DNA of 5,867 bases, from IMG/VR virus record IMGVR_UViG_2744054675_000002; one strand, written 5' to 3'. This document shows positions 1,543 to 5,867 of the stretch, piece by piece. Made by a program: the position numbers and the translations under genes. The stretch comes from a virus. Its lineage: Duplodnaviria > Heunggongvirae > Uroviricota > Caudoviricetes. Each line of letters opens with the position of its first letter. Position 1 is the first letter of the stretch. The notes below the pieces were generated by a model, which did not search any database, was not told the DNA's origin, and was given only the letters and a program-made list of their open reading frames with translations.

Positions 1543-1614
1543 GTTGGTTTTTCTCCACGGATTTACCGACAACCGAAGCCCTGACTGTTCCAGCAGTTGG
1601 GGCTTCAACTTTTT
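1543..1614 (+). ncRNA. sar: Candidate sar-like small antisense RNA, complementary to the ant RBS/start and the arc-ant intercistronic region
   Basis: Plus strand: extended -10 motif TGcTATACT at 1528..1536, inside the ant 5' coding region, which predicts a start near 1543. A hairpin follows at 1575..1606 (GAAGCCC / GGGCTTC core, extendable with G-U pairs, 6-nt loop), then AACTTTTTG at 1607..1615. The predicted transcript of about 70 nt matches the size and position of the P22 sar RNA. Ends are approximate. Confidence 0.5.
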
Positions 1615-2309: not shown

Positions 2310-2469
2310 TTCTGTTGCGGATTTGCTTCTTGCGGTGGTTTAGGCTGGAGAGCTTGGCTTCTGCTTCCGATATTTGCGCATCCAGATCTTTAAGTTCAAG
2401 ATCTGAAAGTCGCTGGTCAAGCAGGGTTTGATTCAACTCGATGTTGTTCAGGCGTTCTTCTATGGTCAT
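2284..2469 (-). CDS. Hypothetical coiled-coil-like small protein (61 aa)
   Basis: ATG at 2469..2467 with AAGGTAA upstream (revcomp of about 2476..2482). Codon choice looks coding-like (CTG, CGC, AAC, ATC). The protein has heptad-like hydrophobic spacing and a basic C-terminus. It lies in late-operon orientation and overlaps the 3' end of the 69-aa ORF by 26 bp, so it is uncertain. Confidence 0.35.
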   Translation of the reverse strand: MTIEERLNNIELNQTLLDQRLSDLELKDLDAQISEAEAKLSSLNHRKKQIRNRITQGRGSC

Positions 2470-2494
2470 ATTATTACCTTAGTGGGAGATTGGT

Positions 2495-2794
2495 GTGAAG
2501 CGATGGGTTATAGGTGCATTCTGTTTTCTAATTAGTGGTCTTGCACAATCGCAAGATAAGGATCTGAAATTTGCTAACGACATGTTAGTTACAGCTAAAG
2601 TTGCTGGTATGTGTGGAACATTTAAACAAATGTTTGCTTTTCAAGAAGCAACACAGATGCCCGGCGGAGATGAATTTATTGAACGTTTTTTGAATACGGA
2701 AATTTCTCGCCTAGGAATGTCACTTCAAGAGTTCATGAAGTTGTGCACAGATTCTATAGAGTCATACAATAAATTAAAAAGGATGTCAGAATAG
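2495..2794 (+). CDS. Hypothetical secreted/periplasmic small protein (99 aa) with N-terminal signal peptide
   Basis: GTG start at 2495 with GGGAG at 2484..2488 (6-nt spacer). The N-terminus MKRWVIGAFCFLISGLAQSQ has a basic n-region, hydrophobic core and a likely signal peptidase I site after GLA. There is no lipobox. The mature part of about 79 aa has two Cys. The gene is AT-rich. Confidence 0.6.
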   Translation: MKRWVIGAFCFLISGLAQSQDKDLKFANDMLVTAKVAGMCGTFKQMFAFQEATQMPGGDEFIERFLNTEISRLGMSLQEFMKLCTDSIESYNKLKRMSE

Positions 2795-2808
2795 CCATCC
2801 ATGGCTAT
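2791..2808. repeat. 18-bp palindrome ATAGCCAT-CC-ATGGCTAT straddling the stop codon of the 99-aa ORF
   Basis: Eight-bp perfect inverted-repeat arms with a 2-bp centre, read directly from the sequence. Function unknown (protein-binding site or RNA hairpin). Confidence 0.4.
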
Positions 2809-2820
2809 CGGGAGGTTAAT

Positions 2821-2889
2821 ATGGTAACAGTCGGTTGGATTATTGTTGCCCTGCTTGTTGCTCTGTGGGCAAAGAATCGTTACTACTGA
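2821..2889 (+). CDS. Candidate 22-aa hydrophobic micro-protein ([22 protein letters not shown])
   Basis: ATG at 2821 preceded by GGGAGG at 2810..2815 (5-nt spacer), 26 nt after the 99-aa ORF stop. It encodes a single predicted transmembrane helix with a basic/aromatic tail. Caveat: 50 bp overlap the antisense of the Gln-rich 3' end of the gp16-like gene, which biases toward Leu/Val codons. Confidence 0.25.
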   Translation: MVTVGWIIVALLVALWAKNRYY

Positions 2890-5008
2890 GAAAAGCGATA
2901 ATACCAACGCGGGCTAGATTTTTCTTCTCGTCCGCTGATAGCGTATTTACCCAATCCCTATATGGTTTCACTTTCTGCATTGAAGCATCCACCGATTTCC
3001 TAGATGCTGGGGTGCTGGCGTGACCTGCGGCAATCCTTTTTGAGAGATTTTTAAAAGCCGGAGATGCTATTAATTCATCAGCGGCAGCCATTCTTGAATT
3101 TTTACCAGAACGGAGGAGGCTAAAGAGTACCCCTGCCGTACCGGCTCCAGGCGCTCCGATGGCTGTGGTTAGCCCTTCTGCTTTAGCCACGTCTTTTCCT
3201 ATTCCATATATACGCCCAAGCATTCCCTTCTCTCCTGCGAACTGATTCATCATCCGGTCAATTTGAGAGGAGGAATACACCTTCTCGCTGCCCACCCTTT
3301 GCATGCCAGAAGCCACCTCATAGATGTTTCTCAACCTACGCGTAGCCTGATAGCCAATTGCCCGGCTCAATGCCTGCATATTTGATTTGTTTCTTGATAG
3401 CCCTCCATACCACTTAACAAATCCAGGAACACCAAGTGACTGCCCGGGAGATTTAGCGAACGTAGTGAAAGCCCTATTCATTGCGGTGGCAACAGCTGGT
3501 TGCACCATGTCATCAGGAAGATTTGAAACTAGGCGACGGAAATCACCGCCCTTTCCTTGAGACATATCGACGATAGCTTGCTGTAATTGCGGCACTATTC
3601 CTTTATCCAAGTCTCTGCCAAGATTTTGAACAGCGGCTGCCTGCACTGCGAATCTCTTTCTCCCGATCTCTCTAGCTAAATTCCATGTATCCTCTGCACC
3701 ATATTTGGCAGCAGCGGCTCCCTGATCTTTTATCAGTGCGCTTTCAATAATTCCAAGGTGCCGAGCGTCGATGCCGCTATATGGCCCTTTATCCATCTCT
3801 TTGCCAAGAGCCCTTCCAACCTGCCGTCGAACTGCATCAAGAAGACCATAAGTCGGGGCGGTGTTTGGGTCTATTTGTTCCAAGGTCTTTGACAGTTGAG
3901 GATATAGCGATTTTAGTTTTTCCAGCCCACCGACATCATCTGCAATATCCTCAATGGCGTTAGTGGTATGGGTGGTATCTACGGTAGCTCTTGTTGGAAT
4001 TTTTGCTCTAATTTGATTGTATAGAGTGTCTTCTTGGCGCTTCAGGTTTGATCTTAACTCCTCATAAGAGCTTTTGACCTTTTGATTGATAAAGTCCTTA
4101 TCAACGCTCCCACCAAAATCATTAATAAATTTATCTGCCTGCTCTCCAAGCCTACTAATGGCCTCTCGCTGTGCGTGGAACAGTTTATTCCCTGGGGTTG
4201 CAGCTAAAGCATTTTCAAACGCGCGGTAAGAAGGGTTGCTGGAGTACATGCCGGGAGTTAAGGCATCCTCCATCCCAAGATTGCGGGCGGCCTGTAGCAC
4301 AGAATCATCTGGTGAAACAGCTTCCGCGAGAGCATTTAAACCAGATCTGTTTCCTGTTATTGGATTCACATCTGTAGCTTTCGTTGCAACCCTCGCCATT
4401 CCACTAAGTTCAGATGCCTGAGACATTTCTGCCGATGGAGGCCTAAACCTCTTCGTAACCGCACTGGCTGCTTTGCTAATCACTGGAGATGCCAATTCAG
4501 CAATTGGACCAGCGGCAGCACCTATAGCCGCCCCTGTAGTTACATTGCCACCGGTTCCGTTAGCAACAACACCACCTTCAACCGCACCAAGCCCTGCGGC
4601 GGCAGCCAGCCTTGCCGCCCCTTTCGGAACCTGAGAAATAATCCCACCACCACTAACAAATGGCGCTGCTTGTCCAACAAACTCACCAACATCTTGTGCG
4701 GTTGATGGTTTTGCCGCTAACTTCTGCTGTAGAGACTGAATTGCGGCTTGCTCTTCTGGTGTCATATCCTGAAACAGGCCAACACCTTTACCAACATCCA
4801 TCAATCCACTGAGAACGCCATACATAAAACGGTCGAAACCGTTAGCATTATTAACAACATTTTCCTGTCTGGAATTTTCCTCTGGTGAAACCAAAGGAGA
4901 TTGCTGCTGTTCTGGTTGGGAATCAAGCACAAAGCCATCAGGAAGTTGTGAGTTATCAGGCTGTTCATCCAGAACAAACCCCTCTGGTAAACCTACATTG
5001 GTTGCCAT
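2840..5008 (-). CDS. Ejection (DNA-transfer/injection) protein, P22 gp16-like, 722 aa
   Basis: Long minus-strand ORF with ATG at 5008 and AGGA about 7 nt upstream. It is the last late-operon gene before the immI region, which is the position of gene 16 in P22-like genomes. It has a Gly/Ala-rich segment and a hydrophobic stretch near the N-terminus. The family assignment comes from synteny and composition, not from a verified alignment. Confidence 0.7.
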
Positions 5009-5867
5009 TGTCCGTTCCTGTAAATAATTTTCTGACCAGTTTTAGGATTTTTCGCGGTCATACCTTCTCGAAATGTTTGACCGCCAGATGTTGCTTGTTG
5101 TGTCTGTTGTTGCGCAGGCTGCTGAATATCTTCATACAGCTTGGCTTTTCTGGATTGCAATTGCTTAGTTAGTCCGCTGGGGAGAGAATCTCCATAAGTT
5201 GAAAGATAATCATCCATTTGCTGATTAAACTTTTCGCCTTCAGTATTTGCCATCAGTTTTGAGGTGTTGATTAAGTCTTGGACTTGCTCATTATTCAGCA
5301 TCTTGCCGTTAGATAATTGGCTAACATAGTTACCAAGTGTGCCGAATATTCCATCAGTGCGTTTTACCTGCACTTGCTCACCTTCGCGTACCACAGATTG
5401 CGGATCCAGCGATTTCATATAGTTGAAAATCATTCCCAACTGTGCGGCTGGAGTGTTGCGCTTACCAAGGGCTTGTAGGTTGTCAGCAGCACTGCGCATT
5501 GCAGAATAATTCTTTGAGAACCCATTAATATCACTATTCAGATTTCGAACAAGTTTTGGGTCAATCTTTCCGCTTTCCTGTTGTTTCATCCCTAATTCCT
5601 GCAACTTCAGGGCTACGTTATCATTATGCATTTGTGCCCGCTGAGCCCTGTCTAGTTGAGCGTTTTGGATATTTGCCCATCCTCTCGCGTTCTCCATGTC
5701 AGCCTGACGGATGCTTTCATCCAATCGCCCTTTCTCAAGTTGGCGACCAACCATCTTATCCTGATAATCCAGCATTTTATCCGGACCAACAGCCCCTAGC
5801 GTCATAGTAGTCAGCATGTGTGATAGCTGCTCTGGATTCTGGATACCTGTCTGAATCATCCAGTCAG
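4993..5867 (-). CDS. Ejection protein, P22 gp20-like; 3' portion, N-terminus lies beyond the right window edge
   Basis: The minus-strand frame is open from the window edge (codons upstream of the ATG at 5859 remain open) to the TAG at 4995..4993. It overlaps the start of the gp16-like gene by 16 bp, which is typical late-operon packing. The product call is by synteny only. Confidence 0.6.

Follow-up and report, generated by a model that had tools for sequence, protein, structure and literature searches.

Where the accessory genes of a P22-like prophage meet the 3' end of an ejection-protein gene read from the opposite strand, a strong Shine-Dalgarno sequence precedes a frame of only 22 codons. 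The question raised by this locus is whether so short a frame is a gene, and what its peptide might do beside gp16, or whether it is an accident of the DNA opposite a gp16 tail.

The micro-ORF and its setting

The window, i.e., the whole 5,867-nt stretch of DNA that was analyzed and to which all positions refer unless another locus is named, covers the immI/ejection-gene region of a Kapi1-like, P22-like prophage (Lederbergvirus). Escherichia phage Kapi1 and a small number of E. coli prophages match it at 98-99% identity. On the minus strand lie ant (640-1608) and arc (1605-1793), and on the plus strand mnt (1867-2103), two small ORFs and an ORF for a 99-aa signal-peptide protein (2495-2794), which belongs to PHROG 19844, a family with no assigned function. 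The remainder is occupied, on the minus strand, by the gene for a 722-aa protein in the gp16 position (2840-5008) and a gp20-like gene (4993-5859). The sar RNA overlapping the arc/ant junction (1543-1610, plus strand; Rfam RF00262, 91.8 bits) confirms a P22-type immI region; it is the only Rfam match in the window, with none in the micro-ORF region. In Kapi1 and two E. coli strains, ~250 bp not present in the window (2400-3100 compared with Kapi1; locus L002, 3602-3784) are inserted between an XhlA-like ORF and the 99-aa ORF, and encode a second small signal-peptide protein, Kapi1_060.

The micro-ORF (2821-2889, plus strand) consists of 22 codons from an ATG at 2821 to a TGA at 2887-2889. A short hairpin (2791-2808) overlaps the stop codon of the 99-aa ORF and is followed by the Shine-Dalgarno (SD) sequence GGGAGG (2810-2815), which is separated from the ATG by the 5-nt spacer TTAAT. 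Codons 1-6 lie outside the gp16-position gene, while codons 7-22 are antisense to its tail, giving an overlap of 50 nt (2840-2889). The arrangement described in an earlier, sequence-only reading, in which GGGAGG, 5 nt and an ATG open a 22-codon frame antisense to the 3' end of a gp16-like gene, is thus exact, and its coordinates were confirmed. The predicted peptide starts MVTVGWII and has a GRAVY of 1.23. Its residues 2-17 form an uncharged stretch of 16 residues, i.e., of helix length, followed by K/N/R/Y/Y, and the single hydrophobic helix with a KNRYY tail noted in that reading is indeed seen. With an uncharged N-terminus and K/R near the C-terminus, the predicted orientation in the membrane is N-out, C-in.

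A terminator scan revealed no terminator-like site between the 99-aa ORF (which ends at 2794) and the micro-ORF, nor further up to the gp16 3' end, so that the proposed co-transcription of the two ORFs is plausible. A promoter scan of the window yielded none for the micro-ORF itself, and a consensus scan of the minus strand near 2800-2950, a type of scan that is insensitive, gave no promoter-like site. RNA folding of the region did not differ from shuffled sequences on either strand (z -0.55 and -1.27), and a structured RNA element is therefore not supported. In the text portion of a paper on RNA-seq of Kapi1 lysogens, no signal is mentioned at the micro-ORF position, and mnt is described as not expressed (PMC12922286).

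The micro-ORF and Arc are the only two ATG-initiated ORFs of 18-60 aa in the window that follow a GGAG-type SD sequence. Among 500 dinucleotide shuffles, an ORF with SD and ATG and a GRAVY of at least 1.2 occurred in 3.2% of windows. In the antisense frame across gp16 and gp20, 47% of 16-codon windows were free of stop codons; when the gp16 tail was recoded synonymously, an antisense ORF of at least 20 codons arose in 75% of cases, and one that was also hydrophobic in 21%. The evidence for a gene from this single sequence is weak and suggestive only, and the weight consequently rests on the comparison with related loci.

A conserved frame and a variable gp16 tail

Among 5,426 complete E. coli genomes, 19 contain the micro-ORF; further copies came from 17 contigs of IMG/VR and from two phages, Kapi1 and the Salmonella phage S.Kent 1-2-1. 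The check set beforehand was whether ATG, frame and SD are kept in related prophages. In all ten haplotypes, representing five peptide variants, two gp16 classes and four upstream genes, the ATG, an SD-like purine run, the frame and the length of 21-22 codons are intact. The SD varies at other loci (TGGAGG, TGGAGA, TGGGGA) with unchanged spacing, and in one lineage it is weakened to GGGGA. The element is rare, as the number of E. coli genomes carrying it indicates; P22 and the gp16 classes C and D lack it, and it was annotated in none of the records examined.

When positions 2770-2960 were used as a blastn query, the part conserved in other E. coli P22-like prophages was confined to 2791-2843, at 85-87% identity. 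This block runs from the hairpin through SD and ATG to codon 7 or 8. Between class A (that of the window) and class B it is ~86% identical, despite gp16 proteins that are only 53% identical, and it sits behind any of four unrelated upstream genes: the 99-aa ORF, a YobH-family gene, a 140-aa hypothetical gene or another ORF. Past codon 8, about half of the bases differ between classes A and B, and one frame is a codon longer than the other. A hydrophobic helix, a W and a basic/aromatic end are nevertheless encoded in both classes; in class B, this part of the peptide reads ...AFLIAFWVGRHWL. The frames of classes B and B' both have 21 codons, and the class B' peptide is less hydrophobic (...SFLVTSFGRRHWL).

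The non-overlapping codons differ between classes by the synonymous exchanges GTC/GTT, ATT/ATC and ACA/ACG, with one exception, W6S in the lineage of Kapi1, which is a viable phage. The resulting count of three synonymous changes versus one non-synonymous change (estimated p ~0.05-0.15) is too small for significance, as it derives from only about three independent lineages (A, B and B').

Several of these observations would also fit a junction that is passively conserved as a boundary sequence between modules, or a decayed remnant (for example, the 5' stump of a gene of the 35-42-aa type described below), carried along by recombination and yielding no functional peptide, with a frame open and hydrophobic only as the antisense of a polar, Gln/Asp/Ser-rich gp16 tail. 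Antisense openness is common, as the proportions given above demonstrate; the strongest conservation is at the DNA level, from the hairpin to codon 8, in the manner of a recombination linker, the rest being ~50% diverged; and both the rarity of the element and the W6S change in Kapi1 point in the same direction. Against this stand the ATG, SD and frame, which have been lost in no copy, and the two deeply diverged classes, which retain the same length (to within the one codon) and the same layout of a helix followed by a basic/aromatic end. We consider such a junction or remnant the most serious of the rival explanations, though less likely than a gene, in view also of the properties of the gp16 tail.

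The protein in the gp16 position is a distant relative of P22 gp16. It matched no Pfam family at E<=1, including PF26808 (Phage_P22_gp16), and showed weak collinear similarity to the gp16 of BTP1, which is of the PF26808 type (pairwise E 7e-4). Its tblastn relatives come from non-P22 podophages (Skarpretter, Sf101 and others) and carry annotations such as transglycosylase or DNA transfer protein, while a search with its C-terminal 200 aa returned a single match, a near-identical Salmonella fragment. The class C gp16 carries an N-terminal region of ~150 aa identical to that of the window, with an overall identity of only ~53%, and the gene is thus a mosaic.

The conserved core of these proteins ends in ...GII(A/T)(F/W)LS, and both the length and the sequence that follow are variable. 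In the window, the last 14 codons (2843-2884) after ...IIAFLS constitute the variable tail, which ends in ...PTEQQAGQQ*. The corresponding tails are QQDTTASDDQPKMQ in class B, QQDTTASDGDQKM in class B', SDS in class C and NDPDND in class D. Some 45 extra nt between the ...WLS/FLS motif and the hairpin are found in classes A and B only and are missing in class C, class D and P22, i.e., they occur only where the ORF is present, which speaks against a mere remnant.

Two polymorphisms fall within the overlap. In E. coli Res13-Lact-PEB17-18 (locus L001, ~3941-3956), one G>A change produces V13I in the micro-ORF and a nonsense codon in gp16, so that the gp16 tail ends five residues early (...PTEQ*). 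At a second locus (L011), the change is silent in the micro-ORF (Y21) and causes S>N in gp16. Both (n=2) are thus milder in the micro-ORF frame than in the gp16 frame, again contrary to what a remnant would lead one to expect.

The gp16 tail overlapped by the micro-ORF is dispensable. Since it is unconserved (no class A-like tail exists in classes C and D, and it is cut in L001), it cannot hold an antisense frame open over evolution. Moreover, because the ~45 nt are present only alongside the ORF, the tail looks like micro-ORF DNA read by gp16, rather than the reverse. By this sequence comparison, the tail behaves as an unconstrained read-on into micro-ORF DNA, which argues against an antisense artefact without proving that the micro-ORF is translated. 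The caveat attached to the sequence-only reading, that a Gln-rich tail on the opposite strand might by itself create such a frame, therefore stands with respect to the high chance openness, but is weakened in that the tail itself is not conserved. Considered together, the comparisons suggest that the micro-ORF is a genuine unannotated gene for a predicted single-pass inner-membrane micro-protein of 21-22 residues, a reading to which we assign a probability of about 0.55.

Small membrane-protein genes in the slot beside gp16

A gp16-based scan of the GTDB species genomes found no relatives, and a pattern scan of these genomes with the first eight codons gave only chance matches in unrelated taxa. 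A metagenome scan for the hairpin plus codons 3-7 yielded one identical copy and an unrelated conserved gene. By tblastn against phages, the 22-mer matched Kapi1 only. The five peptide variants were absent from a collection of 15 billion proteins in an exact look-up, as expected from the size of the peptide, and none of the small peptides described here matched Pfam or PHROGs. The candidate explanation that in other places the conserved block begins a longer gene was rejected, as no longer ORF starting with MVTVGWII was found in a P22-like context.

The hairpin at 2791-2808 has the form ATAGCCAT-CC-ATGGCTAT, with a conserved 14-nt core, AGCCATCCNTGGCT (2793-2806). Being weak (-8.6 kcal/mol) and devoid of a U-tract, it is not a canonical terminator. 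In a survey of 194 junctions downstream of gp16, which represent 51 sequence clusters, the core was present in 8 clusters (51 loci), including those of L204 and L240, whether or not the micro-ORF was there. The hairpin marks the boundary between the cargo genes and the end of gp16 in many P22-like phages. Its loop base varies, and in the L042/L047 lineage (GGCCATCCGTGGCC in L042) both closing bases have changed together (GGCC...GGCC). The P22 version, GCCGTCCTTGGC (L095, ~4320-4335), is located between the stop codons of sieA and gene 16.

IMG/VR was scanned for the hairpin and GGAG only, using a pattern that contained no ORF sequence. Two more P22-like contexts emerged, in which a hairpin and SD identical to those of the window precede a different small hydrophobic ORF. 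The first (L099) carries a 23-aa ORF that overlaps gp16 by 12 nt, and the second (L106) a 41-aa ORF with no gp16 overlap. Each of these ORFs belongs to a larger family.

The first family comprises peptides of 23-25 aa (MERDLLNFAFLIFG...LFA), with the consensus M-E/D/N/Q-R-D-L-L-N-F-A-F-L-I-F-G-x-x-V-G-x-x-L-F-A/T. Of the 79 junctions recovered with an L099-type gp16, 75 carry it, 72 of them with an SD. In total, the family is represented by 37 different peptides and, at the DNA level, by 32 different 23-codon sequences. Over the 19 codons outside gp16, pS was 0.73 and pN 0.20 (pN/pS 0.27; dN/dS ~0.09), as opposed to pN/pS values of 1.3 and 2.0 in two control frames. Diversity was highest at third codon positions (0.52), followed by first (0.24) and second (0.15) positions. 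Judged from these substitution patterns, the family unambiguously encodes a protein, with strong purifying selection that is specific to this frame. It has in common with the window's micro-ORF a short hydrophobic ORF with an SD that converges on gp16 and overlaps the gp16 stop; the window peptide, however, has no sequence similarity to it (p 0.26-0.32 in local alignment versus composition-preserving shuffles).

The members of the second family, MITNIILWIIFAVLV...QLSNVTKLLRSI (for example, MITNIILWIIFAVLVTISVQLSNVTKLLRSI... and MITNIILWIIF...), are 35-42 aa long and, in P22-like prophages, always encoded by the last gene before gp16 (L106, 5705-5830, minus strand; L108-L114, 3001-3126, plus strand; proteins P0001-P0015). 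They contain a single helix, and their genes are located behind varied cargo, such as a YafO toxin, and are followed by a GC-rich hairpin of their own. One member carries an organism name, Serratia sp. MF2, the others being encoded on Logan/JGI contigs, and no Pfam or PHROG family was matched. The window's micro-ORF shares with this family the slot, the orientation, an N-terminal single helix and the pattern M[VI]T..WII.A.LV, as well as, in the case of L106 only, an identical context of hairpin and GGAGGTT SD. In contrast, members of the family are twice as long, possess a conserved amphipathic C-terminal half (SVQLSNVTKLLRSI) and their own terminator, and do not overlap gp16. Against shuffles, the similarity of the micro-ORF peptides to this family gave p values of 0.008 for class A, 0.27 for B and 0.07 for B', and the SVQLSNVTKLLRSI segment is absent from the window peptide. 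The class A value, combined with the missing C-terminal half, is a further point in favor of the remnant considered above. An HMM of the 41-aa family run against all window ORFs gave no significant match to the micro-ORF (3.0 bits, E 4.6), and the similarity to this family is statistically unproven.

A third arrangement is found in class C (21 IMG/VR loci), where the micro-ORF is absent and a 75-aa membrane ORF with two predicted helices (MKRWFLIITVFAIIYAIF...KITKVD; L020, 4621-4848, minus strand) overlaps the gp16 stop by 4 nt. P22-type loci carry sieA in the same slot. As far as can be predicted from the encoded proteins, the slot of the micro-ORF is a membrane-protein position across this phage group, occupied by proteins of decreasing size.

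Membrane proteins and toxins of this size are known from enterobacteria, including YpdK (23 aa), YobI (21 aa), IbsC (19 aa) and KdpF (29 aa), and genes of this type are routinely missed by annotation. The window peptide resembles them in its size range and its single hydrophobic helix, whereas they are chromosomal, occur in other contexts and bear no sequence relationship to it according to Pfam; for the window peptide, neither an antitoxin RNA nor a partner complex was identified. The sequence-only reading had likened the peptide to small membrane toxins or small regulatory membrane peptides. A type I toxin-like, membrane-damaging peptide, silenced by pairing with gp16 mRNA or another RNA and serving abortive infection or prophage maintenance, would have the size and hydrophobicity of the Ibs, Ldr, TisB and ShoB-type toxins, and the overlap with a convergent transcript would suit it. 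Nothing toxin-specific was found, however: no dedicated antisense sRNA promoter was seen in the insensitive consensus scan, no Pfam toxin family was matched, and the strong SD is unstructured, with no long structured 5' UTR of the sort typical of type I toxin mRNAs. Furthermore, a lysogen lacks the late mRNA, its only antisense partner, and the toxin would therefore be unrestrained there. We regard a toxin as highly improbable, and a toxin in particular is not supported; the position points instead to a sieA-type slot.

Superinfection exclusion at the same position

SieA, the superinfection exclusion A protein of P22, was reportedly described by Hofer et al. in 1995. Its gene has the slot and the orientation of the micro-ORF: it lies on the anti-late strand, which the prophage expresses, and is the first to run toward the 3' end of gene 16 from the opposite direction. 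SieA is a membrane protein, as is predicted for the window peptide, and P22 retains a related hairpin, as given above. The two differ in that SieA has ~160 aa, several membrane spans and a cytoplasmic FxRYPxEAxxFNK motif, while the window peptide has 22 aa and one span. The motif is not present in the window peptide, which by Pfam and PHROG searches also showed no homology to SieA types A-C. P22 escapes SieA through changes in gp16 (P546S in 8 of 8 mutants, plus G532W) and gp20 (Leavitt et al. 2024, PMC10883804). Exclusion has been demonstrated for SieA, whereas for the window peptide we infer it.

By analogy with SieA, in position and architecture rather than homology, a role of the window peptide as a minimal superinfection-exclusion or ejection-protein-interacting peptide is the most plausible of the functions considered, and is put forward tentatively. 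In the reading as a gene favored above, the micro-gene would be the last on the anti-late strand in the immI/sieA accessory slot of this Kapi1-like, P22-type prophage, and ribosomes would start at its own strong SD on the message shared with the upstream cargo gene. It would be expressed when the late operon is silent, i.e., in the lysogen, and would run convergently into the dispensable C-terminal tail of the last ejection-protein gene, a tail that probably exists only through the gp16 frame reading on into micro-gene DNA. In the exclusion role, the peptide would sit in the cytoplasmic membrane and obstruct the gp16-type channel of related phages entering the cell, in the way that SieA does in P22.

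[quoted passage not shown] 2020, PMC7067206). Plasmid-borne expression of the transcript conferred complete exclusion of BTP1, with prophage induction unaffected, and the SNPs of escape phages fell within 36 bp and were all non-synonymous in gp16 (PMC7067206). It was called non-coding because it contains no ORF longer than 60 aa (PMC7067206). When the published coordinates and primers were mapped, the cloned fragment proved to hold an intact 23-aa ORF of the first family (MERDLLNFVFLIFGLVVGKLLFA) together with its SD (L275, 2501-2572; LT714109.2, 14014-14082 region; D23580, 404250-404321). In gp16, the escape cluster covers residues 61-73 counted from the C-terminus (ILGIGTVTNPALV), and BLASTP aligns P546 of P22 inside this segment. 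Just past the stop codon of the ORF, at TSS + 505 nt, lies a stable hairpin (-17.3 kcal/mol, z -3.0). The main Northern species of ~480-500 nt would end there, upstream of the proposed antisense 'seed'. The BTP1 exclusion factor may thus be the 23-aa protein, rather than STnc6030 RNA, and it is on this possibility that the similar role proposed for the window peptide is founded.

The BTP1 locus and the window share the anti-late strand, an antisense end in the 3' region of gp16 and a small hydrophobic ORF with a strong SD at the gp16 stop. They differ in several respects: the lysogen-expressed STnc6030 is described as a non-coding antisense RNA (PMC7067206); the BTP1 ORF belongs to the other family (MERDLLNF..., p ~0.3 versus the window peptide); its upstream region lies inside the tailspike gene, rather than being a cargo gene; and the gp16 of BTP1 is of the PF26808 type, distant from that of the window.

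The same published precedent, an exclusion-conferring transcript in the same position (PMC7067206), would accommodate an RNA product in the window as well. The transcript of the accessory operon, in which no terminator was detected from the cargo gene to the end of gp16, would extend ~50+ nt into the gp16 3' end and, as has been proposed for STnc6030 in BTP1, act as a cis-antisense RNA on the mRNA of the late operon or of an incoming phage, the ORF at most keeping ribosomes on the message and preventing an early Rho stop. The strong frame-specific purifying selection on the equivalent ORF of BTP1 would be unexpected for a purely non-coding RNA, and a sequence-specific antisense would not need a conserved SD and ATG. 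BTP1 exclusion also spares prophage induction, and every one of its escape SNPs alters a gp16 residue at the site of SieA escape. In addition, the window showed neither significant structure nor an Rfam match in this region, as described above. An RNA as the functional product is accordingly judged unlikely.

More broadly, and with still less assurance than the role suggested for the window peptide, the micro-proteins of 21-25 residues in the sieA slot could all be real exclusion effectors, each matched to the neighboring type of gp16. The window peptide would be the Kapi1-type member, and BTP1 exclusion would arise from the embedded 23-aa ORF, acting on the gp16 segment targeted by SieA; this wider proposal is doubtful as it stands. 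Its BTP1 component, the re-reading of STnc6030 as an mRNA for a 23-aa exclusion protein, is testable, and would explain the unaffected induction, the gp16 escape changes at the SieA-escape site and the abundant ~500-nt transcripts. If true, a blocker of the phage DNA-injection channel with only 22-23 residues would be a very tractable model of exclusion.

If real, the micro-gene would be among the smallest phage accessory genes, and gp16/gp20, the most variable portion of the P22-like virion module, would be paired with a matching set of equally variable tiny membrane peptides on the opposite strand. Genes of such sizes are invisible to annotation pipelines, and even the 23-25-aa gene is unannotated in nearly all records among the tblastn matches listed, including ST64T, ST104, L, BTP1, g341c and SPN9CC.
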